Positions 7,548 to 23,382 of a DNA stretch of 23,382 nt are shown here, one piece after another. The notes beneath the pieces were generated by a model. That model saw nothing but the letters and a program-made list of their open reading frames with translations, was not told the origin of the DNA and searched no databases. Source of the stretch: a virus. Its lineage: Duplodnaviria; Heunggongvirae; Uroviricota; Caudoviricetes. Made by a program: the position numbers and the translations under genes. Location of the stretch: IMG/VR virus record IMGVR_UViG_3300025853_000035, positions 128,001-151,382 of that record, one strand, 5' to 3'. Within the stretch, counting starts at the first letter, position 1; each line of letters starts with the position of its first letter.

Positions 7548-7730
7548 TCACTTTCGGATGTGATTATAGCGTCGGCGCGGCCTTGTTGATCCCAACTCCT
7601 CCGCGATCGCGCGGTCGATGTCGTCAAGGTCTTCGCCGAAAGGGAACCCCTCGGACTCCCCGTCCCCTTGATCCAGCAGCCGTTCGTAGCGGTCTGGATC
7701 AAGGTGGATTTCGTAGTCCGGGGAGGCCAT
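7548..7730 (-). CDS. Small acidic hypothetical protein coupled to the portal gene
   Basis: 60 aa, TAATG stop/start overlap with the portal gene, GGAGG upstream. Confidence 0.6.
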   Translation of the reverse strand: MASPDYEIHLDPDRYERLLDQGDGESEGFPFGEDLDDIDRAIAEELGSTRPRRRYNHIRK

Positions 7731-9511
7731 TACTGATTACCTCCCGCCGGAGCGGCCGGCTTGGGCTTTGCCGGTGGGGTGGTGCTCCCCTTCTGCATCG
7801 CCTGCTGGGCTTGTGCCGGGACCGGAGGAATCTTCGGCTGTTCCTTGGCGACCTTCTCGGCGGACTTTCGGGAAGCCTCGGCCTGCTCGGCGTCGTGCTC
7901 CAGTTCGGTGTCCGCCCGGTCGGTCTCGTTGTCGTCGAGATCGCGCGCCAGTTCGTCCGAGCGCTGGGCGCGGGCATCCGGGAAGCCATCTTCCCGCGCT
8001 TCGAAGTCCGGGTTGTTCGGGAACTGCTTGGCGTCTTCCAGCATCTTGGTGAACATCTCCAGAGTCACATACTCCGGGATGACATCCGCCTTGAGGAAGT
8101 ATTCGTAGATGACCTCGATCGGCAGGATGCCTGCCTGATACATCATCGTGATGGCGCGGAACTCGCGGGCCGCAGCCGCGTCGATGAGGAAGTCCTGATT
8201 GACCCGGAACTCCATCTTGTCGGCCGGCTCGTTCAGCCACGCGGCGATGATGGCCAGAAGCTCGGTGAAGTTCTCGTTCATCACCGTGGTGACGTTGAGC
8301 AGCAGCGATTGCTCGTTGCGATCCTTCAACTTGATCTGGTTGTCGGACTGGCCGGCGGTCTTGGAATCGCCGAGCAGCCGGCCGCCGAGTGATGCGACCT
8401 GCGTCTCCTTGGCGATCAGCGCGTTCTCCAGAGTCTTGAGACCCTGTCCGTTGAACTCAAGGATGCCGGCCTTCTCGCCGTTGCCGATTTCCCACACGAC
8501 CGACGGGCCGATGTGATATTCGTCTTCTTCCTGCCCGCCCGTGACGTAATAGACCGGGTTGGCGGTGTAGAAGCGGCCATGCTCCAACTGCGCATAGGTC
8601 TTGTAATGCGACATGTTGAGCGTGAGGATGTCGAGGACCGGCGGCTTTTCGATGTCCGGCAGGTTGGTGGTGCCGTTGAAGAAGCGGAACGGGATGCGCT
8701 TCATCGGGACGCCGTAGACCATCGGCTTGGTGATGACCGGGGTTTCCGTCAGGTCAGCATCCTCGGCGTCGCGGGCATAGACTTCCTGCTGATATTCCCA
8801 GCGGAGGTCGGTGTCGTTCCAGATCAGGCGCAGGACGCGATAGCGCGCGAACAACTGGCCGTAGGAGGTGTTGGGCTTGGCTTCACTGCCCTCGAAGCGG
8901 AACAGGCGGCGATCGACCGTGAACTCGCGGAGCAGGATGTAGTCGTGCTCGTCGCGGCCATCGATCTCGACCGTCGTCCAGTCAAGGATGTTCTCGCAGG
9001 TATAGCCGGCAAGGTAGGGCTTCGCGAGCGGGTCGTTGGAATCGGGCTTGTCGGCGAGGATGCCGTAGCGTCCCACCGACAGCATTTCTTGGCTCACCAC
9101 CTTGGTGAAGACGCGCAGGGACAGGCCGTCCTTGCTGACCCGCTTGCACAGTTCGGTCAGCTTGGGGCCGGCACGCAGCAGGCGGGGGTCGCGGCGGAAG
9201 ATCGAGCCGGTGAGGCCCGTGACCGTGCGATAGACCATGTTGTAGAAGACCGCGCGATCGAGGTAGGCGACATACTGGCCGTCATCCATGCCTTCCGGCT
9301 GGGGCAGATATTCCTTGCCGTGCTTCTTGATCTCGACCTCGCCGATCATGGCGTGGCGGATCGCCTGCCAGATCATGCGCCAATTGTTGTAATCCCAATT
9401 GGTGTAGAGCGGGGCGGAGGAGAGCAATTCCTGCTTGTTGCGCTTGGTCGCATAGGCGGCCTGACGCTGGGCAAAGGTGCGCGCCTGTCGTTTGGTGATA
9501 TTGTCAGCCAA
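7730..9511 (-). CDS. Portal protein (DUF4055-like)
   Basis: YLPQPEG...Y.AYL.RAVFYN...GRYGILAD...IPF...KPP.LDI..LN.SHY motifs. The start is placed at TTG 9511 because the ORF-track extension to 9712 crosses a terminator; exact start uncertain. Confidence 0.85.
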   Translation of the reverse strand: MADNITKRQARTFAQRQAAYATKRNKQELLSSAPLYTNWDYNNWRMIWQAIRHAMIGEVEIKKHGKEYLPQPEGMDDGQYVAYLDRAVFYNMVYRTVTGLTGSIFRRDPRLLRAGPKLTELCKRVSKDGLSLRVFTKVVSQEMLSVGRYGILADKPDSNDPLAKPYLAGYTCENILDWTTVEIDGRDEHDYILLREFTVDRRLFRFEGSEAKPNTSYGQLFARYRVLRLIWNDTDLRWEYQQEVYARDAEDADLTETPVITKPMVYGVPMKRIPFRFFNGTTNLPDIEKPPVLDILTLNMSHYKTYAQLEHGRFYTANPVYYVTGGQEEDEYHIGPSVVWEIGNGEKAGILEFNGQGLKTLENALIAKETQVASLGGRLLGDSKTAGQSDNQIKLKDRNEQSLLLNVTTVMNENFTELLAIIAAWLNEPADKMEFRVNQDFLIDAAAAREFRAITMMYQAGILPIEVIYEYFLKADVIPEYVTLEMFTKMLEDAKQFPNNPDFEAREDGFPDARAQRSDELARDLDDNETDRADTELEHDAEQAEASRKSAEKVAKEQPKIPPVPAQAQQAMQKGSTTPPAKPKPAAPAGGNQ

Positions 9512-9528
9512 GGGGGAGGGAGTCCGGG

Positions 9529-9563
9529 AAAAAGCGGCCGGTGATCCGAAGATCGCCGGCCGC
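9529..9563 (-). terminator. Intrinsic terminator with cUUCGg tetraloop
   Basis: GCGGCCGGCGATC-TTCG-GATCACCGGCCGC-TTTTT on the minus strand. Confidence 0.75.
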
Positions 9564-10018
9564 AGGTCAGGAGGAGACAGGCTGATGTCGGAGCCACCCG
9601 CCGGAGGGAAAAGGACAAAGCCTCCGGGAACTAGGTCAGGAAGGACCGGCCTTTTGCACCATCGGTGTGCCGGACCATGACCTGAAACAATCCGTGCGCT
9701 TCGAGCGGCCACAGGGACCTACCACACATCGGAAAGGGCTTGCCCATCTGGCCCAACGAGGACCGGGCTTACCTACCACATCCGTCTCCAGCGCTTTGGA
9801 GGTTGGAAGCCTTCTCGATCGCATGACGGTTGGGTTCCGGGGGTCAGCCCGACCAAGGGCCTACTGTCCATTCCCGCGCGCCAAGTGGTCTCGATCTTAC
9901 GCCTTCCAGCCGCGAAGGGTCTGGGATGCTACATGAATGGGGTTGAGGCTCGCGAGATCGCCTAGTGCGGAAAGGAGACACACTTCGGGGGAGATCAGCG
10001 CTCATCACGAGCCTCATG
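9529..10018 (-). ncRNA. Putative ~490-nt structured non-coding RNA (or long attenuated leader of the portal gene)
   Basis: Bounded by a near-consensus promoter and a terminator, with no credible minus-strand ORF. Several stems, some with minus-strand G-U pairs (9945-9955/10005-10015; 9964-9969/9979-9984), and pyrimidine-rich loops. Confidence 0.55.
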
Positions 10019-10024
10019 ATTATT

Positions 10025-10053
10025 AAGCTACCACGTCTTTCTTGATTTGTCAA
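10025..10053 (-). promoter_or_regulatory. Sigma70-type promoter of the putative ncRNA
   Basis: TTGACA(10053-10048)-N17-TAGCTT(10030-10025) with an extended -10 TG. Confidence 0.7.
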
Positions 10054-10117: not shown

Positions 10118-10148
10118 AAAGAAAAAGGGCCGGATCGCTCCGGCCCTT
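10118..10148 (-). terminator. Intrinsic terminator after phoH
   Basis: AAGGGCCGGA-GCGA-TCCGGCCCTT followed by a T-rich tail on the minus strand. Confidence 0.8.
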
Positions 10149-10152
10149 CCTA

Positions 10153-10962
10153 TCATGCTGCGTAGAGGTAAAGCACCTCTTCGATCACCGGGTGGCGGAC
10201 CACGTCGGCGCGGGTCAGGGCGTAATAGCCGATCCGCTCCCAGCGGCGGGGTTCGGCCGGCAGGCGCTCCTCGCCCGTGATGAAGCCCGGCAGTTCCGGC
10301 TCGAACGCTTCCTCCTCGGCTTCCTCGCGCTGCTTGAGACGGCGCGTGATGTCGGCCAGACCGCTGACGGTGGTGCCGAGTTCCTTGCGATCCCACTGCT
10401 CGGTGTCGCCGGTGACGATCATCTTGCTGTTCTCGCCGATGCGGGTCAGCAGCATCTTCATCTGGTCGGCGGTGGCGTTCTGCATTTCGTCGGCGATGAT
10501 GATCGCGTTCTTGAACGTGCGGCCACGCATATAGGCGAGTGGCGCGATCTCGATCTCCTCGCGCTGGAGCATCTGCTGGACGGCGATGACGCCGAAGCAT
10601 TCGTTCAGCACGTCCACGATCGGGCGGGTCCACGGAGCCATCTTCTCGTTGAGCGTGCCCGGCAGGTAGCCGAGGTCGTCGCCGGTCGCGACATTGGGGC
10701 GGGTAATGATGATCTTGTGGAATTCACCGGCGATGTATTTGTCCGCTGCTTCACGAACGGCCATGTAGGTCTTGCCGGTGCCGGCCGGCCCCTCGACGAT
10801 GAGGATGTCGTGCCGCATCTGGCGGAGCTTGCGCAGATAGCCTTTCTGGTTGGGAGTGGAAGCGGTGAGCTTGGGCGGGGCTTTGTGCTTGGTGGATTCC
10901 ATCTTCTCTGCGATGTGTGAGGCGTTGGTGGGGAAGAAGGTCTGCTTCTTGTTGCCGGACAC
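10153..10962 (-). CDS. phoH: PhoH-family ATPase
   Basis: Walker A GPAGTGKT, LGYLPG..EKM.PW, YMRGRTF, DEMQN, LLTRIG, TGD..Q.D, DVVRH. The GTG start at 10962 has an AGGAG RBS. Confidence 0.95.
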   Translation of the reverse strand: MSGNKKQTFFPTNASHIAEKMESTKHKAPPKLTASTPNQKGYLRKLRQMRHDILIVEGPAGTGKTYMAVREAADKYIAGEFHKIIITRPNVATGDDLGYLPGTLNEKMAPWTRPIVDVLNECFGVIAVQQMLQREEIEIAPLAYMRGRTFKNAIIIADEMQNATADQMKMLLTRIGENSKMIVTGDTEQWDRKELGTTVSGLADITRRLKQREEAEEEAFEPELPGFITGEERLPAEPRRWERIGYYALTRADVVRHPVIEEVLYLYAA

Positions 10963-11599: not shown

Positions 11600-11839
11600 C
11601 TATGCCATAGCGCCACGATAGGTCTGGCAACGGGTCACGCGCAGGGCTTGGCGGCCAGCGAAGGCAAGGGAGTCGCGCCATGCGCCTAGTTCCGCCTCAG
11701 TCAGGGCATAGCGTGCCGCCGCGTCCGCCAGCGTGATTGCGCCCGCGTCGATAGCGGCGACAATGGCAATCTTGCGCTTAGGCGTGAAACGCGCGTTTGA
11801 GGCGGGAAGGGCGTTCAAAAGGGTTTCGATGTTGTTCAT
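11600..11839 (-). CDS. sciP: SciP-like CtrA inhibitor (DUF1153, small HTH protein)
   Basis: LPASNARFTPKRKIAIVAAIDAGAITLADAAARYALTEAELGAWRDSLAFAGRQALRVTRCQTYR follows the recalled SciP pattern LP....RW..RRK..VV.AV.GG..S..EA..RY.L..EE...W......G...LR.TR.Q.YR. Confidence 0.8.
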   Translation of the reverse strand: MNNIETLLNALPASNARFTPKRKIAIVAAIDAGAITLADAAARYALTEAELGAWRDSLAFAGRQALRVTRCQTYRGAMA

Positions 11840-11987
11840 TGCCTGTCTCCATTTGGTTAGTGATTCGTTTATCTATTATTCCACCGATTCGGTCAAGCAC
11901 ATTATCCTTAATATCTCATGCCATTTCGTTAACCATATCTGTTAGGGTTAATATCCATGGCTTTGCTGTTAACCCTAACGCCTAGCA

Positions 11988-12109
11988 GGCACGGGCAGGG
12001 AAGGCCGCTAGGGCAGGCAGGGGCACGGGCAGGGAAGGCCGCTAGGGCAGGCAGGGGCACGGGCAGGGAAGGCCGCTAGGGCAGGCAGGGGCACGGGCAG
12101 GGAAGGCCG
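11988..12109 (+). repeat. 34-bp G-rich tandem repeat, ~3.6 copies
   Basis: Unit GGCACGGGCAGGGAAGGCCGCTAGGGCAGGCAGG; period 34 (ACGGGC at 11991, 12025, 12059, 12093). Confidence 0.95.
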
Positions 12110-12155
12110 GAATCGAAAGGGCCGCCCTAGGGCGGCCCTTTTGGGGTGGCGGCCC

Positions 12156-12434
12156 TTATGCTTGGGCCGCTTTCCACTTGGCAATTTCAGCCTGCCGACG
12201 GGCCTCAAAATCACCCGTTGCGTAGGGGCTGCGGCCATGGGTGAAGCTGGAGTCGGCCCGTTCGATCCGCGACTTTTTCGGCAGATTGCGGTCGCTGTTA
12301 TCGCTCAGCATGACTTCACAACGGCCATACTTGTAAAGCGCCGTTTCGTGAGCCTGACGCTCAGAAACCGCCGAAATGAAAGCCACGAAAACCTTGTTCT
12401 TGTAGATTGCGAAGGTGGGGATGTTCTTGGCCAT
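12156..12434 (-). CDS. Hypothetical protein, 92 aa (cassette 2)
   Basis: Start reassigned to the ATG after GGAGACAGAC (MAKNIPTF...). Confidence 0.75.
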   Translation of the reverse strand: MAKNIPTFAIYKNKVFVAFISAVSERQAHETALYKYGRCEVMLSDNSDRNLPKKSRIERADSSFTHGRSPYATGDFEARRQAEIAKWKAAQA

Positions 12435-12714
12435 TGTCTGTCTCCGTTTGCGTCTCGATGACTTACTTCTAGGGCCGATTTTTGATTCGGTCAAACACTT
12501 TCTGCAATTATTTTGGCGCGTCACTTCCTCCACCAAAACAGGCGGATTCATGATCTAGGCCGCTAGGGCGGGCGCGTCATGGCCCGCTAGGGGCGGCGCT
12601 GGGCGTCGATAGGCCGCGCCGGGCAGTCTGGCCGCGCTTTGCCGCTAGGCGCGCTCCTTGGGCGTCTGGGCGGCTCCTACGGGCGCAAAATGACCGCGAT
12701 CCATAATTAGGCCC

Positions 12715-12855
12715 TCAGAAACCGGCTTGCAGCTTGCTGAAAACCTCATTGACGAAATCCGCCACTTCCATCGCCACGAACACGGCACCGACCGCGACCG
12801 CAATCTTTACAGAAAATCCGCCGATCAGCAGGCCAACAATTCGGTTCATGTCCAT
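12715..12855 (-). CDS. Small membrane protein, 46 aa (cassette 3)
   Basis: MDMNRIVGLLIGGFSVKIAVAVGAVFVAMEVADFVNEVFSKLQAGF after GGAGACAGAC. Confidence 0.7.
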   Translation of the reverse strand: MDMNRIVGLLIGGFSVKIAVAVGAVFVAMEVADFVNEVFSKLQAGF

Positions 12856-13020
12856 GGTCTGTCTCCTTTCCAGACATAGGATGGACGCGGCGACCGATTC
12901 GGTCAAGCACTTTCTCCACTTATTTTTCGACTCGTTATGGTTAACGCGGCTGGGCAATTTATTAACCTTAACAGATTGTTGGGGCGCAAAAAAAGGGAGG
13001 CTTTCGCCTCCCTCCTTGGC

Positions 13021-13365
13021 TTAATGGCCGTAGTTGCAGCCGATATAGTAGAGCCGCCCGGCGACCAGATAAGCGATGTCCGCCGATCCGCAGCAGCCCG
13101 CATTAGCGGCTTCCTCATAGGCCGCCCATTCGGTGGCGCGGTCGGCGAAGGCGGCGCGATAGTTGTCGCGATAATCCTCGTCCGCAACCGCGTCATGGAA
13201 AAGCGCGTGCGCCTCTTCCACCGTGGCAACCGCTGCCAGCGCGCGGACCATGGTGCGCTCGCCCTCGAACGCGAGGAGGGCCGCAGCCGCCTCCGCAGCG
13301 GCGAGGTCCGCAGCCTCGATCACCGAAGCGGAGCAGTTGGAGCGGAGGAAGAGGAAGTAGTTCAT
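13021..13365 (-). CDS. Hypothetical protein, 114 aa (cassette 4)
   Basis: GGAGACAAG RBS; C-terminal GCCGS...IGCNYGH; terminator follows. Confidence 0.8.
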   Translation of the reverse strand: MNYFLFLRSNCSASVIEAADLAAAEAAAALLAFEGERTMVRALAAVATVEEAHALFHDAVADEDYRDNYRAAFADRATEWAAYEEAANAGCCGSADIAYLVAGRLYYIGCNYGH

Positions 13366-13437
13366 GGCTTGTCTCCTAGCCGGGTTGATGAGTGATGATT
13401 CTCATATTCCACCGATTCGGTCAAGCACTTTGTTTGC

Positions 13438-13638
13438 CTATTGGTATTGTCTTTTTGATGCGGACATAAGCACAACATGCCCAGCCATTTTCGCAATCAT
13501 GCCCAGCGCCAGCAGGCTGGCGGCGTTCATCTCCAGCGGCGTTTCTGGCCATGTCATATCAGGGGCGATTGTCGTGGCCGCCCAGACGCAAAGCAAGGCG
13601 AAGGCATAAAGGGCGGCGATCAGGATGGCTTTAGGCAT
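13438..13638 (-). CDS. Small membrane protein, 66 aa (cassette 5, second gene)
   Basis: GGAGACAA RBS; MPKAILIAALYAFALLCVWAA..., two hydrophobic segments. Confidence 0.7.
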   Translation of the reverse strand: MPKAILIAALYAFALLCVWAATTIAPDMTWPETPLEMNAASLLALGMIAKMAGHVVLMSASKRQYQ

Positions 13639-13657
13639 GGTATTGTCTCCGGTTCGA

Positions 13658-13885
13658 TCAGGCGGCCAAAGGCGCGGCATATTCAGCGAAAAGCGATTCC
13701 GCTTCCGCGAGCGTCAAGCCCTTGGCGACGCATTCCCAATCGTGGACCATTGCGCCCGAAACGGACTCGGCCCGATAGATCGGCGCGGCCTGCACCCACT
13801 TAGGCGCGCGGATGGAAACGGCGAAACCCGCCGCGCGCTGCACGATCATGACATTTTCGTTAGCTGACTTGCGAATGACTTTCAT
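13658..13885 (-). CDS. Hypothetical protein, 75 aa (cassette 5)
   Basis: MKVIRKSANE... after GGAGACAGAC; ends in LAA. Confidence 0.75.
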   Translation of the reverse strand: MKVIRKSANENVMIVQRAAGFAVSIRAPKWVQAAPIYRAESVSGAMVHDWECVAKGLTLAEAESLFAEYAAPLAA

Positions 13886-14042
13886 GGTCTGTCTCCATCG
13901 GCGCTGCGCCGTTGGACGGTAAGTCACATACTCCACCGATTCGGTCAAGCACTTTCGCAAGAAAAACGACGCCACAAGGGAAGCTGGCGTTAACCTTAAC
14001 AGATTGTTACCACCAAAAGAAAAGGGCCTTTCGGCCCTTCGC

Positions 14043-14429
14043 TCAATATGGCGAGCAACCATATTTGGCCCATTCCTTCACGGCGATTCCGCGCTTCCAT
14101 AGGGCGTGTTCGCGATCCTGCGCATCCTCGCAGCCTTCCGCCTCAAACCACCACCGGAGGGCGTCCGCACGGGCGATTCCGTGGTCGTGCTGGAGGTCGG
14201 TCAATTCCTCCTCCAGCTTGGCGATAGCGGCGGCAGAACGGACGGCCTCGCGGTCATTCTCTTCCGCGATCATCTTGCCCAATTCATCGAATGCGACGGC
14301 GTAGTCCTCCAGCGTGACAGGGCAATGCACGCCGCCATTGCGCGGGCGGAAACCGTAGGCGTCTTTGTGCATGTCCGAATAGATGACGGCGGCCTGTTCG
14401 AGGTCGGTGAGTGCGTTCCAGTCGGTCAT
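14043..14429 (-). CDS. Phage hypothetical protein, 128 aa (cassette 6)
   Basis: GGAGGAGACAGAC RBS; YSDMHKDAYGFRPR motif recalled from other phage proteins. Confidence 0.8.
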   Translation of the reverse strand: MTDWNALTDLEQAAVIYSDMHKDAYGFRPRNGGVHCPVTLEDYAVAFDELGKMIAEENDREAVRSAAAIAKLEEELTDLQHDHGIARADALRWWFEAEGCEDAQDREHALWKRGIAVKEWAKYGCSPY

Positions 14430-14569
14430 TGTCTGTCTCCTCCGGCACCGCGCCGGTGACTTCCTTCTAGAGTCGTTCCAGCGATTCGGTCAAGCACTTT
14501 GTTCGGTAGATAGTTGTTAAGGTTAACGCCGGGCCGGGCACAAAAGAAAAGGGCCTTTCGGCCCTTCCC

Positions 14570-15193
14570 TTAATCCTCCCTCCTTCCGTCTTCCCGGAAG
14601 GTGTAACCGTTCGCCTCCATAGCGTCGGCAATCTGTTCATCGCTTCGCAAATATTCGTCCTCGTCCCGGAGGCGATCATAGAGCCACCGGCCCAAATCCT
14701 TGGCGATCTCCTTGATCTCCTCGGCACGTTCATGCGCGCCGTCGGTCCAATCAAATTCGCTGGGTTCCGCTTGCGTGCCGTAATAGTGATGATAGGTGAC
14801 GACATAGGCGGAACGGTAGAAGGTCCGGGCGTGCAAGGCCGCGATGCGGTCCGCTAGGGCGTGTAAGACCGTATCCTGCGGCGCATAGTCCCGCACGGCC
14901 TTTGCCATCCCCTTGGCATAGGTCATCGTGCCTTCAAAGGCCGCATAATCGCTTTGCGAGTAGCCCAGCGACCACCAGATGTTTGCATCGTAGCGCGTTG
15001 CGCCCGACATCAGGGTGACAGGGTGCGTCTTGAAACTGACGCCCATAAGCTCGGCGATCGTCTTGAAGTCGTCGATCGTGGATTCATAATCCGTCTCGTC
15101 GCGGCAATCCAGCCACCACTGCTTGGCGGTCTCCTTGGCCGAGTCGCTCAATTCGTCATAGGTGTAAAGCGTGATCGTCGTTTCGGTCGGCAT
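14570..15193 (-). CDS. Mobile-element protein, 207 aa, resembling the family often labelled 'antitoxin of toxin-antitoxin stability system' (cassette 7)
   Basis: Y..DELSD.AKE.A..W...SQ.D.A.FEG...YAPQD..LH..AD...DL.RWLY..L..E.EYL.SDE......AN.YTF.E.G.R pattern, recalled rather than searched. Confidence 0.7.
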   Translation of the reverse strand: MPTETTITLYTYDELSDSAKETAKQWWLDCRDETDYESTIDDFKTIAELMGVSFKTHPVTLMSGATRYDANIWWSLGYSQSDYAAFEGTMTYAKGMAKAVRDYAPQDTVLHALADRIAALHARTFYRSAYVVTYHHYYGTQAEPSEFDWTDGAHERAEEIKEIAKDLGRWLYDRLRDEDEYLRSDEQIADAMEANGYTFREDGRRED

Positions 15194-15357
15194 TGTCTGT
15201 CTCCTCCGCATTGGTGCGGTAGGGCTGGAGTAGAGGGCTAAAGTGATTCGGTCAAGCACTTATTCCAGATCAAGAATGGTTAACGGGCTGGGGCGATTTC
15301 GTTAAGGTTAACGGATGAGGCGGGCGGAAGAAAAGGGAGGCTTGCGCCTCCCTTCGG

Positions 15358-15702
15358 TCATTCCGCCGGGGAGTAAATTACCCGCCCTTCGTCGCGCAGC
15401 TTCTCCAGATCGCATTCGATAGCGTAATTGTTGAAATACCAGCAGCGGCCGATGATTTCGTTTGCGCCGTCGTCGTGCGTCGTCATTTCCTCCGCAACGC
15501 ATGGGGCGGAAGTCAGCCCGACGAAAGGATTTGCCTGCCCCGCGTCAAAGTGGGTGAAAGAGCCATTGCAGGCGTAAGACTCGAACAAGTCCGCCATGAC
15601 AAGCCAGTAATTGCGGTCGGCGTGGTCGGCGATATATTCCCGCGCTTCTTCGTCGGCGGTGATCTCCAGATCGCCATTTTCGAGGATCGTGCATTCAATC
15701 AT
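15358..15702 (-). CDS. Acidic hypothetical protein, 114 aa (cassette 8)
   Basis: MIECTILENGDL... after GGAGACAGAC; terminator follows. Confidence 0.8.
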   Translation of the reverse strand: MIECTILENGDLEITADEEAREYIADHADRNYWLVMADLFESYACNGSFTHFDAGQANPFVGLTSAPCVAEEMTTHDDGANEIIGRCWYFNNYAIECDLEKLRDEGRVIYSPAE

Positions 15703-15807
15703 GGTCTGTCTCCGTTGTGATGATTCGTTTTGGCATAATCCATCGATTCGGGCAACCACTTTATCCATAAAAAGAAAGCCCCGGCGCGCTAGGCTCCGGG
15801 GCGATGA

Positions 15808-15873
15808 TTAGAAGCTGGCCGCAACGGTAATCAGCAGCAGGCCGGTAAAGAGGCGGGAAAGGGCTATCAGCAT
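15808..15873 (-). CDS. Hydrophobic micropeptide, 21 aa
   Basis: MLIALSRLFTGLLLITVAASF; TGATG coupling to the upstream gene; ends just before a terminator. Confidence 0.55.
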   Translation of the reverse strand: MLIALSRLFTGLLLITVAASF

Positions 15874-16178
15874 CAGGCCGCCGCGTCCTCCTCTTCGTCA
15901 AACTCCTCGGCAAGATAGACGCCGTGGCCGCTATGTTCCACCTGCCCGGCGGGCTGGATCGTCATGGCCGGGCTAAGGCTCATTTCGGGCATGTCAGGGC
16001 CGAACGCTTCGCCGGTGATGTAAAGGCCGTCCCCGACCTCCTGCCGCCTGTTGCTGAACTCGATAGCCGCCCCGTCAGCGGTGAGGGCGTCGGCCTTGGC
16101 CTGCGCCTCCTCCAGCGTGTCGGCCAAAATATAGAGGCTGGCGCAAATCATGATTTCGGTCTGGAACAATTTCTGCAT
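15873..16178 (-). CDS. Acidic hypothetical protein, 101 aa (cassette 9, second gene)
   Basis: Own AGGAGACAGAC RBS; ends in EEEDAAA. Confidence 0.8.
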   Translation of the reverse strand: MQKLFQTEIMICASLYILADTLEEAQAKADALTADGAAIEFSNRRQEVGDGLYITGEAFGPDMPEMSLSPAMTIQPAGQVEHSGHGVYLAEEFDEEEDAAA

Positions 16179-16205
16179 GGTCTGTCTCCTTGCGCGGTGT
16201 GCTGA

Positions 16206-16505
16206 TTAGTGGTGGCGGCGGTAGGCGGCGTTCAGGTCGCCATAGGGATCGTAGCGCACGGCGCGAGCCACTGCCCGGCGCTTCGCCTCCTCCAACGTCT
16301 CGCAATATTCCCCGCCGTGATAGCCGCCCAACTGTGTGTTGGCAAAGTGGACGGCGTAGGGGTGCATCTCATTGTGCGGAAGGTGGCGGATAACCACCGC
16401 GCCCGGCGCGGTCGCGCCTCGTCCGGCCATACCATAGAACTGGACGGATTCCTCTTTGGCCTTGGCAATCAGGGCAGGGCTTCCGTGGGTGAAAGGTGCG
16501 GTCAT
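16206..16505 (-). CDS. Hypothetical protein, 99 aa (cassette 9)
   Basis: GGAGACAGAC RBS downstream of the repeat promoter. Confidence 0.75.
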   Translation of the reverse strand: MTAPFTHGSPALIAKAKEESVQFYGMAGRGATAPGAVVIRHLPHNEMHPYAVHFANTQLGGYHGGEYCETLEEAKRRAVARAVRYDPYGDLNAAYRRHH

Positions 16506-16670
16506 TGTCTGTCTCCCTCCGGCTGGGTGCCGGTGATTCGTAACTAGGGGAGGGGACCGATTCGGTCAATCACTTATTCCAGAAAAGAAATGGTTAACGG
16601 GCTGGGGCTGGGCGTTAAGGTTAACAGGAAGGGCAAGCGAAAGAAAAAGGGAGGCTTTCGCCTCCCTCCC

Positions 16671-17033
16671 TTAGCGTGCCCAATAGGTTACGCCGTTGAA
16701 CTCGCCGCTTGTGTAATCCATCTGGAGGGCGCGGGCGGCGGCCTCCCAATCGATATGACAGGCAGGCCATGCGGACTCCTTCGGGATCGCGCCGATCTCC
16801 TCCGCCAACTCCTCGGCATAGTCCTTGAAATAGGAGTCACGAATGAAGGTGACAGGGAACCACGAATTTTCCCATTCATGATCGCCGCCGTATCCCCGGA
16901 ACTGCTCGATAAAGGCGCGCATGGCGGCGGCCTCTTCCTTTTCGTCGCTTTCCGGGTCCGCCTCGATCTCCTCGATCAGGTCGATGATGTCGCGGATGTC
17001 CATAACGTCTTGATATTCGTCGATGGTGGTCAT
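16671..17033 (-). CDS. ArdA-like acidic antirestriction / DNA-mimic candidate, 120 aa (cassette 10)
   Basis: Very D/E-rich; DYAEELAEEIG.IP......HIDWEAAARAL.MDY resembles the ArdA C-terminal domain. Confidence 0.6.
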   Translation of the reverse strand: MTTIDEYQDVMDIRDIIDLIEEIEADPESDEKEEAAAMRAFIEQFRGYGGDHEWENSWFPVTFIRDSYFKDYAEELAEEIGAIPKESAWPACHIDWEAAARALQMDYTSGEFNGVTYWAR

Positions 17034-17183
17034 TCGGTCTGTCTCCGTCGGCTCTGTGCCGGTGATTCGGAGATAGGGGAGGGGACCGATTCGGTCAAGC
17101 ACTTATTCCAGAAAAGAAATGGTTAACGGGCTGGGCCGGGGCGTTAACCTTAACGAATGATTACCAGCGAAAGAAACGCCGCC

Positions 17184-17258
17184 CTATTTGAGGGCGGCGG
17201 CTATGAGGATAAGGAAAAAGCCGGTTATCGCCCCGGCTATGGCGCGTAGCAGCGTCAT
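17184..17258 (-). CDS. Hydrophobic micropeptide, 24 aa
   Basis: MTLLRAIAGAITGFFLILIAAALK; ATGA coupling; similar to 15808-15873. Confidence 0.55.
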   Translation of the reverse strand: MTLLRAIAGAITGFFLILIAAALK

Positions 17259-17665
17259 CGGCTTGCCAGATCATCAAAGCGGCGTTGCATCAGGTCCGAT
17301 ACGTTGCCGTCGTCGGGCATGTCCGCAAAAGTGATGTCGGCAAAGTCATCCCACACCCAATCATAGCCTTGCTTCCACTCGCCCAGCACGGCGGGATTGC
17401 CCCGGCCCGTCTCGACAAATTCGCGGAAGGCGTCGCGGACATAGGTTTCCCCGTCGCCGGTCAGGGGATTGTCAAGGAAGGTCCGACAATGGCCGCAATG
17501 CTGCGGGCAATCCGCTTCCCCGCCGCCTTCCGAATAGGGGCCTTGCGGGAAGGAGTTGGAGTCCGGCTCATGCCCATCGGCCGCGCCTGAACGGATCAGG
17601 TCAGCCTTGATGTCGGTCGCGCAATTGTCGCAATAGATGTCGGATTGAAAGATGTAGGCGTCCAC
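17255..17665 (-). CDS. Hypothetical Cys-containing (possibly Zn-binding) protein, 136 aa (cassette 11)
   Basis: GTG start after GGAGACAGAC; CDNC and CPQHCGHC motifs. Confidence 0.8.
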   Translation of the reverse strand: MDAYIFQSDIYCDNCATDIKADLIRSGAADGHEPDSNSFPQGPYSEGGGEADCPQHCGHCRTFLDNPLTGDGETYVRDAFREFVETGRGNPAVLGEWKQGYDWVWDDFADITFADMPDDGNVSDLMQRRFDDLASR

Positions 17666-17820
17666 GGTCTGTCTCCTAGTTGCCTAGCCTGATTCGCATA
17701 GTCCACTGATTCGGTCAAGCACTTTGTTCGGCGACAAGTTAACAAAGGGTGCGATTTTGTTAAGGTTAACGGAAGCGTCCGGGTAAGGAAAAGGGGAGGC
17801 GTTTACCTTCCCTCTTTGGT

Positions 17821-18327
17821 TCATCCCCACATCCACACCTTGCCCGACTCATGGTCAAAGCCAAATTCAAGCCGGTTTGCCCGCGTCGCGTCGTTCAACC
17901 GTTCCAGACAATCGGCGTTGCCGTCGTCGGTGAAGGATACGCCATGCCCTACGGAAAGCATGTAGAGGGTGGAGCCGATGCGCTCATATGACAGGCCGTT
18001 GCTGGTATAGCGCAGGCCTTCGCTTCCGGGTTCCAGATCAAGCGCCGATTCGATGTCGGCGGCGTTGGCGGTCATGAACGCTTCGCAATAGGCCTTGCAG
18101 CGCTGATAGGTTTCGTCGTCCAGCGTGTAGATTGTGCCGGTGTCGCCTTCCTCGCGCTCTTCCTCGCAAGCTTCATCCATCTCGCTATATTGCAAATCCT
18201 GCAACATGGTCGCGACGAAGTCGGCAAGGATCGGGCAGGCCTTAAAGTCAGCCTTGCGGGCGGCTTCCCGTTCGCGGGTGGCGTCGTCGATTTCGTGGAA
18301 GCCGGTATAGTCGCGGGCGTCGGGCAT
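17821..18327 (-). CDS. Acidic hypothetical protein, 168 aa (cassette 12)
   Basis: GGAGGAGACAGAC RBS; GHGVSFTD motif. Confidence 0.8.
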   Translation of the reverse strand: MPDARDYTGFHEIDDATREREAARKADFKACPILADFVATMLQDLQYSEMDEACEEEREEGDTGTIYTLDDETYQRCKAYCEAFMTANAADIESALDLEPGSEGLRYTSNGLSYERIGSTLYMLSVGHGVSFTDDGNADCLERLNDATRANRLEFGFDHESGKVWMWG

Positions 18328-18505
18328 TGTCTGTCTCCTCCGGCTTGCTTGCCGGTGATTCGTTTCTGAAACATTCCGCTGATTCGGTCAAGCACATATT
18401 CCAGATTTAGATGGTTAACGGATCGCTCGATTTCGTTAAGGTTAACAAATGGTAGTGGTCAAAAAATTTGGTTAACGGGGAGGGCTTCCCCGTTAACCTT
18501 TGGTG

Positions 18506-18898
18506 TCAGGCCATTTCCTCCTCGGCCTTGTCGATGACGGGCCGGAGTTCTTCCCAGATCGCTTCCGCGAAGTCGTTGGCGCTGTAGTCGCTGATAACGT
18601 CATAGCCGTCATTCCCATAGACCAGATACCACTGGCCCAACAGGGTGCCTTCCGCGTCGCGGGCGACGATCCGGTCCTCGTCGGTCGTGAAGAGCGCGCC
18701 GATGATGGTGCCCTTGTCGGTCGAGCGCTTGACGGTCCATTCCTCGCCATCGTTGACGCTGACAGCGCAGCCCTTGGCCAGCAGGGCGTCCACCAGTGCG
18801 GCGCAGATGCGGCCTTCGATGCGGATGCGCTTGGCGAGGCGCTTTTCGCCCTTGGCTTCGGCGTTCTGGGCGTAGATGGTGAAGTTTCCGTAGTGCAT
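18506..18898 (-). CDS. Phage hypothetical protein, 130 aa (cassette 13)
   Basis: GGAGACAGAC RBS; V.DGEE and LVYGNDGYDVISDY motifs. Confidence 0.8.
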   Translation of the reverse strand: MHYGNFTIYAQNAEAKGEKRLAKRIRIEGRICAALVDALLAKGCAVSVNDGEEWTVKRSTDKGTIIGALFTTDEDRIVARDAEGTLLGQWYLVYGNDGYDVISDYSANDFAEAIWEELRPVIDKAEEEMA

Positions 18899-19055
18899 CG
18901 TCTGTCTCCGTTTGCGGTGATTCGTTCTTAGGACGGATCAGGTGATTCGGTCAAGCACTTCCTCCATTTTTCTTTTGGTTAACTTTTCCCGGCCGTTCGT
19001 TAAGGTTAACAGACGCGGGCGGTCAAAGAAAAAGGGAGGCTTTCGCCTCCCTCTC

Positions 19056-19448
19056 TTACTCGCCGAACCAGTAGCAGCGGATATAGGTTTCGATTGCGGA
19101 GTCTTCCTCGTTCGTCGTGGTGAGGTCGGTCCACGGCGTGCCCCAATCCTGCCATTGCAGCCGCCCATAGCTGGGCTGACAGTAGGCGTCCAGATCGCCC
19201 ACGATGCGAAGGGCAGGGCCGCCGGTCGAAAGGAGGATTTCAAATTCCTCCGGCGTGGCGTCTTCCTTCGCGCCGGGGGAATACCAGCCAGTCCGAACGG
19301 AAACCGAAAGGGCGTCTTGCTGGCATTCCTCGCGGAACGTGTCCGCCGCGTCGTGGTCGCCTTCCTGCTCCGCTGCGGTGAGGGCCTGCGCCTTCTCCAC
19401 GATGTCGGAAAGCCATGCTTTGGCGTTGGCGATTGCGTGCTGAGACAT
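19056..19448 (-). CDS. Acidic phage hypothetical protein, 130 aa (cassette 14, second gene)
   Basis: AAGGA RBS; ILLSTGGPALRI.G.L...LQWQDWGTPW motif. Confidence 0.8.
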   Translation of the reverse strand: MSQHAIANAKAWLSDIVEKAQALTAAEQEGDHDAADTFREECQQDALSVSVRTGWYSPGAKEDATPEEFEILLSTGGPALRIVGDLDAYCQPSYGRLQWQDWGTPWTDLTTTNEEDSAIETYIRCYWFGE

Positions 19449-19459
19449 TGCCGGTCCTT

Positions 19460-19591
19460 TCAGGCGAAAGTGAAGAGGTTGCGGCGGGCGTTCTTCGCCT
19501 TGCGCTGCGCCTTGCGGTCGCGCTTGTCGGCGCGCTCAACGCGCTTGAGTTCGCGGCCATAGCCCTTCTTGTCTTCCAGAATGATCTTCAT
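19460..19591 (-). CDS. Basic Lys/Arg-rich peptide, 43 aa (cassette 14, first gene)
   Basis: MKIILEDKKGYGRELKRVERADKRDRKAQRKAKNARRNLFTFA directly after GGAGGAGACAGAC; below the ORF-track size cutoff. Confidence 0.7.
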   Translation of the reverse strand: MKIILEDKKGYGRELKRVERADKRDRKAQRKAKNARRNLFTFA

Positions 19592-19758
19592 GGTGTCTGT
19601 CTCCTCCGCTTGATTGCGGTGATTCGTTTCTGGACCATTTAGATGATTCGGTCAAGCACTTATTCCAGAAAAAGAATGGTTAACTGGCTGGGGCGGTTTC
19701 GTTAAGGTTAACGCAGGTGGCCGGGCGAAAGAAAAGGGAGGCGCTGGGCCTCCCTTGT

Positions 19759-20016
19759 TCAAACGCCGCGCCCGTGCGGACCAGCCTGCTCGCAGAACAC
19801 GGCCCGGCCTTGCTCCGCGTTGGCCTTGGTCAGCCATGCGCAATCTTCGCCGGTCAGGCTATGGTCGATGACATATTCGTCCGCGCCCCGCGTCTCGATC
19901 AGCAGCCACAAGTCGGGCGCTTGTGCGATCTCCGGCGGGGCAGAGGGCTGGGCCTCCCCGCAGGCCGCCAGCGGCAGCAGGGAGACCATGGCGAGCGCGA
20001 TGACAAGGCGGCTCAT
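19759..20016 (-). CDS. Putative lipoprotein, 85 aa (cassette 15, second gene)
   Basis: Signal peptide MSRLVIALAMVSLLPLAAC with lipobox LAAC; ATGA coupling. Confidence 0.7.
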   Translation of the reverse strand: MSRLVIALAMVSLLPLAACGEAQPSAPPEIAQAPDLWLLIETRGADEYVIDHSLTGEDCAWLTKANAEQGRAVFCEQAGPHGRGV

Positions 20017-20255
20017 GCGTTCGCCTCAGCGGCGGCGTTCAGCGCCTCCTTGGCGTCGTCCGGGAAGCGATCCCAGAAGTCGGCGACGCAATCCATGCCG
20101 TAGCAGGGTTCTTCCGACACCTCCGGCGAAGGGGCCTTGTAATCGGCCACACAACCCCAAAGCATCTGATACAGGTCGGCGTTGATGCCGTCCCAGCATT
20201 CAGCCACTTCGTCCGGGCGGACGACTTCAAGAGCGGGGTGAGGTGCGATGGTCAT
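20013..20255 (-). CDS. Acidic hypothetical protein, 80 aa (cassette 15)
   Basis: GGAGACAGAC RBS downstream of the repeat promoter. Confidence 0.75.
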   Translation of the reverse strand: MTIAPHPALEVVRPDEVAECWDGINADLYQMLWGCVADYKAPSPEVSEEPCYGMDCVADFWDRFPDDAKEALNAAAEANA

Positions 20256-20424
20256 TTCGTCTGTCTCCGTGCGGCTTGCTTGCCGCTGATTCGGGGATAG
20301 ACAAGGGGACCGATTCGGTCAAGCACTTATTCCAGAAAAAGAAATGGTTAACGGGCTGGGCTTGGGCGTTAAGGTTAACAGGCGGCGGGCGGCGCGGAAA
20401 AGGGAGGCTTGCGCCTCCCTCCAG

Positions 20425-20631
20425 CTAGGCCGCCTTTACCGTCACCTTGACCGGGCCGCCGAGGTCGCACCGGCCATCGGTCAAGCCTTCGCTGATTTCG
20501 ATAAGCCCGGCGCGCAGCGTGTCGCGCCCGATCATGTCATCGGCGAAATAGTCGAAAAGTTCGGTCGCATAGCGCCGGGCGGTGGCGACGCATGGTTCGG
20601 CGCGGAAAGCGTCTTGGCGTTCGTCAAGCAT
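20425..20631 (-). CDS. Hypothetical protein, 68 aa (cassette 16, second gene)
   Basis: GGAGGT RBS before MLDERQDAF...; ends in KAA; terminator follows. Confidence 0.7.
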   Translation of the reverse strand: MLDERQDAFRAEPCVATARRYATELFDYFADDMIGRDTLRAGLIEISEGLTDGRCDLGGPVKVTVKAA

Positions 20632-20845
20632 GGGCGGGCACCTCCGTGATGACAAGAGCGCCTTTGCGGGCGGCGTTGTGTCCTACGGCCTTCGCCACGG
20701 CGGACGAATAGAAAAGGCTCTGCCCGATGAAGTCGCCGCAGAAGCGGGCGACGAAGCGCGCTTCGGGGTAGCCGCAAAATTCCGTGGTGATGGTATAGCG
20801 CCGATCCGGGCGACCGTCGTTCGTTACAGGGTGATTAGCGGGCAT
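20624..20845 (-). CDS. Hypothetical protein, 73 aa (cassette 16)
   Basis: MPANHPVTND... after AGGAGACAGAC; EFCGY...RFVARFCGDFIG. Confidence 0.75.
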   Translation of the reverse strand: MPANHPVTNDGRPDRRYTITTEFCGYPEARFVARFCGDFIGQSLFYSSAVAKAVGHNAARKGALVITEVPAHA

Positions 20846-21001
20846 GGTCTGTCTCCTTGTTGTGATTCGTGGATAGACAAGGGGACCGATTCGGTCAAGC
20901 ACTTATTCCAGAAAAAGAATGGTTAACGGGATAGGGCTGGGCGTTAAGGTTAACAGGAGGGGCCGGGTAAAGAAAAGGAGGCATAAGCCTCCCTATCTCC
21001 C

Positions 21002-21424
21002 TCATTCGTTGATAAAGAATGGCTTATACGCGCCCCGGTCATGGAACCCACCGCGATAGGGAACCACGCGGGGCCAGTAATGTCCGCGATTCTGGACTCG
21101 CCCATCGTCGGCATAGTCCGCCGGATCGATTCCATGCTTCCCATAGTAATCCTCGCGATTGCTATGGGTGGAATAAAACACGCCATCGAAGAATCCGCCG
21201 AAAATTAAATGGTCGCGGTAAAATTCGTCACGCCGGGCGGCCATATAACCATCCAGATAGGCCCATACCCAGCCGGGCGTTCCCTTGGGCGTGTCGGCGC
21301 GCATTGCCGACAGGGACGCTTGAATCTCAGCGTTAGGCAAGCCGCAAGTGATGGCCATGCTGCACAGGTCAGCCATCCGAGTCTTGAAAGAGTCACGAAG
21401 GGCGAGGGCGCGTTCAAGGCGCAT
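21002..21424 (-). CDS. Hypothetical protein, 140 aa (cassette 17)
   Basis: MRLERALALR... after GGAGACAGAC. Confidence 0.75.
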   Translation of the reverse strand: MRLERALALRDSFKTRMADLCSMAITCGLPNAEIQASLSAMRADTPKGTPGWVWAYLDGYMAARRDEFYRDHLIFGGFFDGVFYSTHSNREDYYGKHGIDPADYADDGRVQNRGHYWPRVVPYRGGFHDRGAYKPFFINE

Positions 21425-21571
21425 AGTCTGTCTCCAGCCGCTTGATTGCGGTGATTCTTTTCTGGACCTTTCGCCCGATTCGGTCAAGCACTTATTCCAG
21501 AAAAGCATTGGTTACTAAATGACCGCGCCGCGTTAAGGTTAACAGGTTCGGCACGGTAAAGGAAAGGCGGC

Positions 21572-21724
21572 CTAAGCCGCCATCTCCTCCAGAACCTTGT
21601 TAATCGCCGCTTCCCGGCTCATGCCGCCCTTAATCAGGGGCTGGGCTTTCGTTTCGATCTCGTCGGCCAGTTGGAAGGCAATGGCGCGAAGTTCGCGGGG
21701 CGATCGGCGGGTCGGCTGGGTCAT
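21572..21724 (-). CDS. Hypothetical protein, 50 aa (cassette 18)
   Basis: MTQPTRRSPRELR... after GGAGACAGAC; ends in MAA. Confidence 0.7.
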   Translation of the reverse strand: MTQPTRRSPRELRAIAFQLADEIETKAQPLIKGGMSREAAINKVLEEMAA

Positions 21725-21825
21725 TGGTCTGTCTCCGGTTTCGATGATTCGGTTTCTCATATCCCACCGATTCGGTCAAGCACTTATTCCACAAAAAGAA
21801 AGGGAGGCTTTCGCCTCCCTCCTTT

Positions 21826-22086
21826 TCAGGCCAGCCGCCCGACATAACAGTAACTGTTATATTGTTCGGGGTGAATCTCACCGTCCTTGCAAAGCATGTC
21901 GGTCCAGTTGTTGAACGCTTCGGAAATGGCCGGTTCGTCGTCCTCGCCATATGCCTCGATAACGTCGGGCAGGACTTCGGAGTCGAAGCGTGCGCTCAAC
22001 TCCTCTTCGCTGGCGATTCCGCCAAAATCCACGGCGTAGGATTCGACCATGTCCAGCAGGTCCACGCGGTTCCAATTAATGGCCAC
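21826..22086 (-). CDS. Acidic phage hypothetical protein, 86 aa (cassette 19, second gene)
   Basis: GTG start with GGGAGG RBS; AFNNWTDMLCKDGEI motif. Confidence 0.75.
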   Translation of the reverse strand: MAINWNRVDLLDMVESYAVDFGGIASEEELSARFDSEVLPDVIEAYGEDDEPAISEAFNNWTDMLCKDGEIHPEQYNSYCYVGRLA

Positions 22087-22174
22087 GGCGCGTCCTCCCC
22101 TTGGCGATCCGCTGGGCGAGGGCGGCGATGCGCTTGGCGCGCTCCTCGCGGGCTTTTTTCTGGCGGGCGGTCAT
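22076..22174 (-). CDS. Basic Arg/Lys-rich peptide, 32 aa (cassette 19, first gene)
   Basis: MTARQKKAREERAKRIAALAQRIAKGRTRRGH directly after AGGAGACAGAC. Confidence 0.6.
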   Translation of the reverse strand: MTARQKKAREERAKRIAALAQRIAKGRTRRGH

Positions 22175-22337
22175 GTCTGTCTCCTTGGCGGCTTGATTGC
22201 CGTTGATTCGTTTCTAGGGCAGGGGACCGATTCGGTCAAGCACTTATTCCAGAAAAAGAATGGTTAATGGGCTGGGCCGCCGTGTTAACCTTAACGAATG
22301 GTGAGGCCCAAAAGAAAAGGGCCTTTCGGCCCTTCCC

Positions 22338-22589
22338 TTAGAAGGAACGGTCAGCCATATCCTCCAACGTGCAAACCAGCCCGTCGAAGTCTTCTTCCGG
22401 TCCCAGCAATTCGGCCATCTCGATAGCCATGGGCAGATCGACGCCGTGGTCGTCCGCCAAGTCGCGGATATAGCCGTAGCGATCGAAGCAGCCGTCCTCT
22501 TCGTAGCGTTCGAGCGGGATGGTGCGCGCCGCGTTAAGCCGGAGGACGGTGGCGAGGGGGATGCCTTCCGGCGAGCGAAGATTGGTCAT
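22338..22589 (-). CDS. Acidic phage hypothetical protein, 83 aa (cassette 20)
   Basis: MTNLRSPEG... after AGGAGACAGAC; LLGPEEDFDGLV..LED motif. Confidence 0.75.
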   Translation of the reverse strand: MTNLRSPEGIPLATVLRLNAARTIPLERYEEDGCFDRYGYIRDLADDHGVDLPMAIEMAELLGPEEDFDGLVCTLEDMADRSF

Positions 22590-22755
22590 CTGTCTGTCTC
22601 CTTGCAGCTTGCTTGCTGCTGATTCGTTTCTGGCATTGTCAGATGATTCGGTCAAGCACTTATTCCAGAAAAAGAAATGGTTAACAGGCTGGGCGATCCT
22701 GTTAAGGTTAACGGGAAGGCCGGGCGCAAGAAAAGGGAGGCGAAAGCCTCCCTCC

Positions 22756-22968
22756 TTAGTGGACCTTGTTGCCGCGCGCGTCGCGCTGAAAGCGTCCCTT
22801 GATATTGGACCGGGCCAGATTGGAATGGAGCCGGGCCAGATGGTCGGCGGCTTCCCGGCACGTCCGACTCCATGTCGTCGTGCCGACATATTCCCACCGC
22901 TTGAGAGCTTCGCTGAATACGAAAAGGTCAATCTTGGGATAGTCCCGCTTGTCGCCATAGCTTACCAT
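22756..22968 (-). CDS. Hypothetical protein, 70 aa (cassette 21, second gene)
   Basis: GGGAG RBS, overlaps the upstream stop, terminator follows. Confidence 0.7.
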   Translation of the reverse strand: MVSYGDKRDYPKIDLFVFSEALKRWEYVGTTTWSRTCREAADHLARLHSNLARSNIKGRFQRDARGNKVH

Positions 22969-23252
22969 GCGACGACTCCCTTTTCCTTGGCGTCGTGGAA
23001 GTCGGGCAGGACGGCTTCGCTGATAGGGCGCAGGCCGCTAACCGGGCTGCAACGGCTATAGCTTTCGCCCTTGAAAAGCTGGAAGCCCAACAGGCCGGGC
23101 TTGACGAAGCGCAGGCGGTGCGCCTGTTCGCGGGCGGCAGCGCTGGCGCGCTCCTTGCTGAAACGCCCGTCAATCTGGACAACGCCATCCGAGCCGCATG
23201 TGGGCGAAAGCTGGCCGGAAAGGTTGGCGTGATAGAATACGGCGAAAAACAT
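22962..23252 (-). CDS. Hypothetical protein, 96 aa (cassette 21)
   Basis: MFFAVFYH... after GGAGGAGACAGAC; CGSDGVVQIDGR. Confidence 0.75.
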   Translation of the reverse strand: MFFAVFYHANLSGQLSPTCGSDGVVQIDGRFSKERASAAAREQAHRLRFVKPGLLGFQLFKGESYSRCSPVSGLRPISEAVLPDFHDAKEKGVVAW

Positions 23253-23351
23253 GGTCTGTCTCCTCCGGCTTGCCTGCCGGTGATTCGTTTCTGTCATTGT
23301 CCGCCGATTCGGTCAAGCACTTATTCCACAAAAAGAAAGAGGGGGCGTTAG

Positions 23352-23382
<31 letters not shown>

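Follow-up and report, generated by a model that had tools for sequence, protein, structure and literature searches.

A portal-proximal phage RNA with segments complementary to a standardised early leader: a candidate off-switch for early translation

A predicted non-coding RNA encoded just upstream of the portal gene of a Lacusarxvirus-like phage carries segments complementary to the ribosome-binding site shared by its early genes and, as far as sequence comparison can tell, segments and cassette leaders largely change together across phages. The RNA is, on the same comparative grounds, a real, conserved and uncatalogued feature of one family of phages of aquatic bacteria. Because its segments complement the shared ribosome-binding site and change with it across relatives, it probably shuts the early genes off simultaneously. 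The original prediction, a phage RNA complementary to a standardised early leader, thus gains comparative support from a conserved 3' segment, from the antisense orientation and from covariation.

The locus and its leader

The DNA analysed here (the window, 23,382 nucleotides) comprises bases 128001-151382, the end of a 151-kb Lacusarxvirus-like phage record. Its portal shows 80% identity to that of Erythrobacter phage XM05, 74% to L02, 69% to Sphingobium phage Lacusarx and 63% to Citromicrobium phage RXM, and because of these identities the host is presumably a sphingomonad. The minus strand runs through a cassette array, phoH, a 640-bp gap, portal, scaffold and capsid. The phoH-like gene (10153..10962, minus) has its own terminator-like hairpin downstream (about 10120-10150), and the portal gene (7730..9511, minus) starts with TTG, without a Shine-Dalgarno match. 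Structural-gene leaders in general (window 9512-9528 and others) are C-rich, with a weak or absent Shine-Dalgarno match. A tRNA and tmRNA search of the window found none.

The cassette array (11600..23356, minus), which goes on at genome positions 1-2600, combines class I (GANTC-containing) promoters with GGAGACA leaders, the predicted targets. The cassettes also carry orientation-independent TTAAC boxes, two of them are separated by a 34-bp perfect tandem repeat (11988-12109), and a poly-C run at the record end (23357-23382) is probably a sequencing artefact. Elsewhere in the genome (88496-89725), a stretch of about 730 bp that includes two small genes along with a class II promoter occurs twice in exact copy, either a duplication or an assembly artefact.

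The window holds 22 copies of the leader word GGAGACAG; 21 belong to the cassette array, on the minus strand, and the remaining one lies at 9573 on the plus strand. Shuffled sequences averaged 0.81 copies and never exceeded 5. By our own gene calls, in which start choice favours GGAG and is neutral to the spacer, the GGAGACA leader precedes 25 of 35 cassette-arm genes versus 0 of 26 structural genes (Fisher p=3e-9), as had been proposed for the structural genes, and is found at 12 of 91 left-arm and 5 of 78 replication-region genes. All five cassette leaders credited with an 11-nt match to the RNA (14433, 15197, 18331, 19597, 23256) were recovered. The target set, first put at more than 20 early mRNAs, does share a leader but extends beyond the cassettes to 42 genes genome-wide, including those for RtcB, DNA ligase and a tyrosine recombinase. 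The same leader pattern is seen at about 31 sites of a 3.7-Mb Erythrobacter chromosome, roughly 1% of its genes.

The predicted RNA

The predicted RNA (9529..10018, minus, about 490 nt) doubles as the portal 5' leader and has no Rfam match at the gathering score; in relatives its length is 90-430 nt. Its predicted promoter (10025..10053, minus) consists of TTGACA and TAGCTT 17 nt apart, lacks a GANTC site and falls into class II, the structural-gene type in relatives; the start site would be at about 10018. The promoter's position is identical in all relatives with an intact locus. At the other end lies an intrinsic-terminator-like hairpin with a U tract (9529..9563, minus), retained in position in most relatives despite unrelated stem sequences. 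Since the portal starts 18 nt past the U tract, which leaves no space for a promoter of its own, portal expression should need read-through. In L005, probably a chimeric contig, inverted structural-gene sequence takes the place of the RNA's 5' part, some 120 nt ahead of the portal.

Apart from a structured core and the 3' end, the RNA sequence is poorly conserved. The core (9680..9788, minus) comprises four helices with tandem purine pairs and an asymmetric internal loop; 95% of its cells are paired and six pairs show two-sided changes. A core model built from nine sequences matches, in position, four phages outside the training set (Lacusarx, L151, L130, L127), and a further match in L021 (19 bits), inside a gene region, was taken as chance. 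The core is missing in several lineages that retain anti-leader segments. Two pattern scans of viral contigs for core motifs returned known members and chance matches only, and Rfam at a relaxed threshold gave the window nothing above chance level; a likeness between certain core words and RNase P or tRNA loops was considered but dropped for want of Rfam support. RNAs of the RXM clade begin with another conserved domain of about 85 nt, again with no Rfam match, which was seen in L022:3597-3690 (RXM), L152, L153, L128, L085, L187, L188 and L196 and is the sole remnant in L187. Distant Roseobacter- and Rhizobiales-type relatives have no counterpart of the portal-proximal RNA. The folding z-score of the whole RNA (-0.36) is uninformative; the proposed structure is supported by covariation, not by folding energy.

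The 3' end is ordered as a 4-bp hairpin, UGUCUCCU, a short tail and the terminator. The weak hairpin (9580..9595, minus) directly precedes the 3' segment; its 4-bp stem is 95% paired, with two-sided (compensatory) changes in two pairs. A long-range helix that rivals it in the energy minimum is broken in L004 and L009, as judged by eye, whereas the local hairpin is retained. The 3' segment UGUCUCCUCC (9570..9579, minus), with an opening cost of 3.1 kcal/mol, is the main predicted seed, and its UGUCUCCU is unchanged in 10/10 close relatives. Under unconstrained folding the seed is partly buried in several close relatives (unpaired probability 0.04-0.5); with the hairpin held fixed, its opening cost in close relatives is 1.3-4 kcal/mol. 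The 5' hairpin (9945..10017, minus) displays in its loop a second anti-leader segment, UGUCUCCUUUC (9970..9980, minus; predicted opening cost 3.8 kcal/mol), and both segments contain UGUCUCC, the complement of GGAGACA.

The original prediction placed two such segments on the minus strand at 9582-9570 and 9980-9970. These coordinates hold, and the 3' segment is conserved, but the 5' segment has no counterpart in the nine closest relatives and sits in a hairpin insertion; L010 has a short version of the hairpin without it. Distant lineages (L194, L185, L190, L151, Lacusarx) have analogous 5' hairpin loops with CU-rich segments. Shuffling of a 490-nt RNA produced two TGTCTCC words in 12 of 3000 cases and one word in 221; the case for the segments is one of conservation and covariation, not of word count. 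The DUF1153/SciP-like gene (11600..11839, minus; Pfam PF06627, E=1.6e-17) had been singled out for a 10-nt match at 11841-11850. The match is there, but special targeting is not borne out, as its extra three nucleotides would pair with stem bases: GCC at 9582-9580, part of the 13-mer first proposed, is the 3' arm of the 4-bp hairpin, so that the sciP-specific extension is not meaningful and the free 3' segment is 9579-9570. Furthermore, the sciP leaders of two relatives differ, and the gene is one predicted target among many, not a privileged one. Genes of this type stand in the cassette arrays of three lineages (window 11600-11839, L189:4121-4357, L194:1567-1779).

The plus-strand copy at 9570 might instead have a simpler cause, being the ribosome-binding site of a 31-codon ORF (9585..9680, plus), whose ATG at 9585 lies at a usable distance, or the relic of an inverted cassette, for which the 23256 leader, matched in inverted orientation at 72% over 29 nt, could speak. 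However, the ORF is not conserved: it has 7 to 90 codons where present, its start codon is absent in L003, L009, L010, L011, L013, L127 and L129, and there is no class I promoter on the plus strand; the longer cassette match, for its part, enters the terminator stem, the sequence of which is not conserved. We therefore reject the ORF, named at the outset as a possible refutation, as the cause of the motif, and regard this explanation as largely refuted, with next to no probability left.

Pairing, timing and origin

When accessibility is taken into account, 22 of 25 cassette leaders and all 12 left-arm leaders have their best predicted site in the 3' segment, while the 5' segment fits AAGGAGACA-type leaders best, beating the 3' segment for 9 of the 25 leaders and faring worse for 8. 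The predicted duplex between RNA and leader has a median of -13.0 kcal/mol versus -8.3 kcal/mol for the 16S tail, and is the stronger of the two for 25/25 leaders; many predicted duplexes span just 7-8 bp. The tail after CUCC matches only five leaders in full and resembles a host sRNA motif. Such pairing could in principle stabilise or activate the mRNAs, by shielding GGAG from a nuclease or by handing them to ribosomes, given that the large core might recruit a factor and that nuclease sites overlapping the Shine-Dalgarno sequence exist (RegB, PMC1702504). Yet the duplex spans both Shine-Dalgarno sequence and spacer, its predicted stability exceeds that of the 16S duplex, and a late-type promoter suits shut-off rather than activation, which we hold to be highly improbable.

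The decisive question was whether the segments follow where leaders differ between lineages, and for the most part they do. In the RXM clade, leaders of the form GAGGAG(C/U)GACG face the segment CGUCGCUCCUC with up to 11 bp: the (C/U)GAC that follows GGAG in the leaders corresponds to a GUCG before CUCC in the RNA, and in 15 of 16 leaders a G meets C or U. In L185, of a fourth clade, the leader GGAGACGAA goes with the segment UUCGUCUCC, giving 9-11 bp to GACGAA-type leaders; in L194, GGGAGACAGAC goes with GUCUGUCUCCC, with 11 bp to 7/7 leaders; Lacusarx combines GGAGACAC with GUGUCUCC, and L129 AAGGAGACA with UGUCUCCUU. L190 has distinct segments, each fitting a different leader variant.

The co-variation of segment and leader, originally suggested as a check, was assessed by scoring each CUCC of every RNA against every phage's leaders. 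Over 22 phages the segments largely follow the leaders, a phage's own RNA pairing better than others (naive p<1e-5); the difference persists without the RXM clade (16 phages, p=0.0013), in eight phages added after the hypothesis was fixed (p=0.004) and with shuffles within clades only (p=0.036), p-values that overstate independence, as the permutation tests treat related phages as independent. A first test on 14 phages was driven by the RXM clade (other 10 phages, p=0.12), and the Lacusarx clade gave no internal covariation signal (p=0.79). There are also individual misfits: no complement of the top leader hexamer is present in the RNAs of L189, L196 and L153, L192 pairs over about 6.6 bp only, L018 is mismatched at +3, and the L187 RNA has no CUCC anywhere. 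L187 is not a clean loss test, because its leaders remain fairly uniform (majority share 0.83).

Covariation of this kind would likewise arise if the motif, inverted ahead of the portal relative to the early leaders, were a double-stranded DNA operator recognised by a phage or host protein of drifting specificity, and the orientation-independent TTAAC boxes of the cassettes might be seen in that light. An operator, however, fits poorly with the fixed orientation, 19 of 23 RNAs holding the complement of their own commonest leader hexamer and 1 of 23 the direct word, with many copies lying in predicted loops, and with C/U variation opposite a G, which wobble pairing permits. We consider an operator very unlikely.

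Timing has to be judged from gene content and promoter class. GGAGACA genes stand behind 35 of 38 GANTC promoters versus 1 of 12 class II promoters (TTGACA, without GANTC; p=1e-7). The RNA and scaffold promoters have an upstream word in common in XM05, Lacusarx, L127 and the RXM clade; the RNA promoter of the window is without the class II upstream word, and late timing there is taken from the relatives. Class II promoters (window 1988, 7507, 10053) carry directly upstream of TTGACA a conserved word that varies from lineage to lineage, which suggests a phage-encoded activator. The scaffold-gene leader (window 7267-7475, minus), 200 nt long, is a second candidate structured RNA. Its conserved blocks, seen throughout the relatives examined, are a G-run hairpin that may form a pseudoknot with a matching C-run downstream (lacking in the RXM clade), a second hairpin, and a short hairpin burying the scaffold Shine-Dalgarno sequence.

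In distant CbK-like phages this promoter lies directly at the portal gene, in some with a terminator-like leader, and because it adjoins the portal there, the RNA looks like an expanded portal leader, reminiscent of the origin of StxS. Upstream of the portal, the distant relatives L113, L114, L116 and L143 have promoter, hairpin with U tract, and portal in succession, an arrangement that suggests an old attenuation of portal expression. The phiCbK portal leader (L024:7880-8000) is short, with two hairpins and a CU-rich stretch and without a terminator, and is possibly a minimal or ancestral form; phiCbK lacks a standard leader.

Such a history would also fit a portal leader acting in cis only, or a protein-binding RNA, which sets read-through or portal translation and whose CU-rich segments bind a protein rather than mRNAs. 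Besides the CbK-like arrangement, it is favoured by a portal without Shine-Dalgarno match or space for another promoter, by late leaders being generally C-rich, and by the core and the RXM-type 5' domain, which are otherwise unexplained and of which L187 retains the latter alone. But a cis-only leader has no reason to complement distant leaders or to covary with them, and a cis role is compatible with a role in trans; we rate the cis-only reading as unlikely.

Proposed action and known systems

We regard repression in trans of the phage's own class I mRNAs, a use in lysogeny or deferment included, as fairly probable from the comparative sequence evidence; for the narrower claim, a late trans-acting translational off-switch for early mRNAs, we see the balance as even. 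In this scheme the RNA promoter would fire together with the structural promoters; most transcripts would end at the terminator and accumulate, and read-through would yield portal mRNA. The exposed CUCC would nucleate on GGAG and extend into the ACA spacer (7-11 bp), probably assisted by Hfq, and the duplex would out-compete the 16S rRNA tail, blocking translation of about 40 early and middle mRNAs together. Shut-off would then free ribosomes for virion proteins.

The same pairing might be timed differently, keeping early lytic mRNAs silent in lysogeny or lytic deferment and giving immunity to related phages. An Erythrobacter chromosome contains, flanked on either side by housekeeping genes, an entire RXM-type prophage, L152 (OZ245896, about 231-335 kb), which carries an integrase at one of its ends, although cultured relatives are reported as lytic. 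RXM encodes integrase and repressor proteins (PMC8953757), StxS is produced from a late promoter during lysogeny (PMC7547250), and CtrA-linked deferment has been proposed for this phage group (PMC9437464). Conversely, the RNA promoter is of the structural-gene type, the tyrosine recombinase gene is itself a predicted target, no lysogens were obtained with Lacusarx (PMC5648845) and L02 was described as lytic. Lysogeny as the main use thus seems rather unlikely, and we keep to late shut-off as the working model.

Taken as a whole, we lean slightly towards a coevolving, lineage-specific code, in which a standardised leader on dozens of early genes is read by one RNA with retunable segments, grown from a portal leader and silencing the whole class. 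If true, this would be an RNA-based temporal switch with class-wide translational shut-off via base-pairing, a task that falls to a nuclease in T4. Such a switch would account for the standardisation of cassette leaders past the Shine-Dalgarno core, and would suggest a testable function for the unexplained terminal-repeat gene arrays of these phages. XM05, RXM and Lacusarx, all cultured, offer natural compensatory pairs for a direct test, and the seed-leader pairs could act as near-orthogonal repressors in Sphingomonadales. The literature searched, with incomplete coverage, yielded no phage RNA aimed at its own early leaders; the type of mechanism is familiar, but the coevolution of a leader code and a phage's own repressor RNA seems unfamiliar.

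The first comparison drawn, with AbcR and cuckoo RNAs, is apt as to the anti-Shine-Dalgarno type, but the 3' end is closer to alphaR8/suhB than to either. The alphaR8/suhB RNAs (MmgR of Sinorhizobium, SisA-D of Caulobacter; RF00519) and SorX (RF02784) have the same layout as the phage 3' module, and SisA represses many mRNAs via its anti-Shine-Dalgarno stretch (PMC12559287). AlphaR8 is defined by a weak hairpin, a single-stranded anti-Shine-Dalgarno stretch UUUCCUCCCU and an intrinsic terminator (PMC12559287). The window has the weak hairpin, a CU-rich stretch and, by sequence only, the 3' terminator; UUUCCUCCCU is matched at 7/10 positions, as against 9/10 in XM05 and L010, the tails of which align closely with the suhB consensus of Rfam. 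At RF00519, with a gathering score of 41 bits, the window gives no match and relatives stay below (XM05 23.7, L003 18.6, L010 27.7, L151 27.8), host suhB copies scoring 43-57 bits. AlphaR8 RNAs stand alone with about 75-80 nt, one copy beside an FGase gene, whereas the phage RNA is predicted at 490 nt between phoH and portal; a short 3' species may yet arise from it by processing. The phage RNA further differs in an altered, lineage-specific seed, in a length of 300-490 nt with extra domains and in its predicted targets, which belong to the phage itself. The alphaR8-like tail is missing from RXM-clade and L185-type RNAs, whose segments are displayed in hairpin loops, closer to the cuckoo type. 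By analogy, the 3' module would work like an alphaR8 seed, but we do not file it as a member.

This likeness is also what speaks for a host-directed sRNA of the alphaR8/MmgR kind, captured or convergent, which represses host mRNAs or titrates Hfq and for which pairing with phage leaders would be secondary. The alphaR8 architecture is joined here by sub-threshold matches to suhB/MmgR, SorX and RF02278 (from the 3' ends of XM05, L003 and L010), by the near-complete 10-mer of XM05 and L010, by a C-rich tail that exceeds what most phage leaders require, and by host-type genomes holding 1-4 suhB copies above the cut-off plus some matching leaders. It nevertheless fails to explain why the seed tracks each phage's own leader, including the switch of three bases that separates XM05-type from RXM-type phages, both of which have Erythrobacteraceae as hosts, and the matching leader is found on about 1-3% of host genes versus most class I phage genes. 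We judge a primarily host-directed role doubtful, and prefer the phage's own leaders as targets.

Other RNAs share single traits with the phage RNA. The Betaproteobacteria toxic small RNAs (RF02278), chromosomal Burkholderia RNAs of 57-92 nt with unknown native function (PMC4603805), open in the Rfam consensus with nine bases, UGUCUCCUC, and end in a terminator; the identical nine bases occur at window 9579-9571, internally, whereas the RF02278 seed is 5'. Relatives score 24.3-30.5 bits and the window gives no match, against a gathering score of 50 bits, and the likeness is probably convergence on the same anti-RBS word. Cuckoo RNAs (RSs0680/CcsR, SmelA075, SmelA099) have 2-4 adjacent hairpins, each with CCUCCUCCC (PMC4615179), and RXM-clade RNAs resemble them in presenting several anti-Shine-Dalgarno modules in hairpin loops; the window RNA has no exact CCUCCUCCC, with 400 nt between its two segments and a main seed that lies outside any stable loop; one exact copy occurs in one loop of L153.

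Among phage RNAs, Sar (P22), OOP (lambda) and STnc6030 (BTP1) repress phage mRNAs by pairing; according to the parts of the review consulted (PMC12197685) they are cis-encoded with one target each, unlike the predicted multi-target RNA, and those parts describe no RNA addressing a whole class of the phage's own genes via a shared leader. StxS of Shiga-toxin lambdoid phages is a trans-acting regulatory RNA terminated just past the late promoter, upstream of the late genes (PMC7547250); the phage has this order of late promoter, RNA, terminator and late gene, with "late" inferred from promoter class, but StxS has 74 nt, two known targets and no shared leader code. The closest functional precedent is, in our best reading, T4 RegB, which inactivates early mRNAs via GGAG and a conserved downstream extension, 11 nt in total (PMC1702504). 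RegB is a protein nuclease activated by S1, whereas here the reader of the tag would be a base-pairing RNA, the RNA counterpart of RegB.
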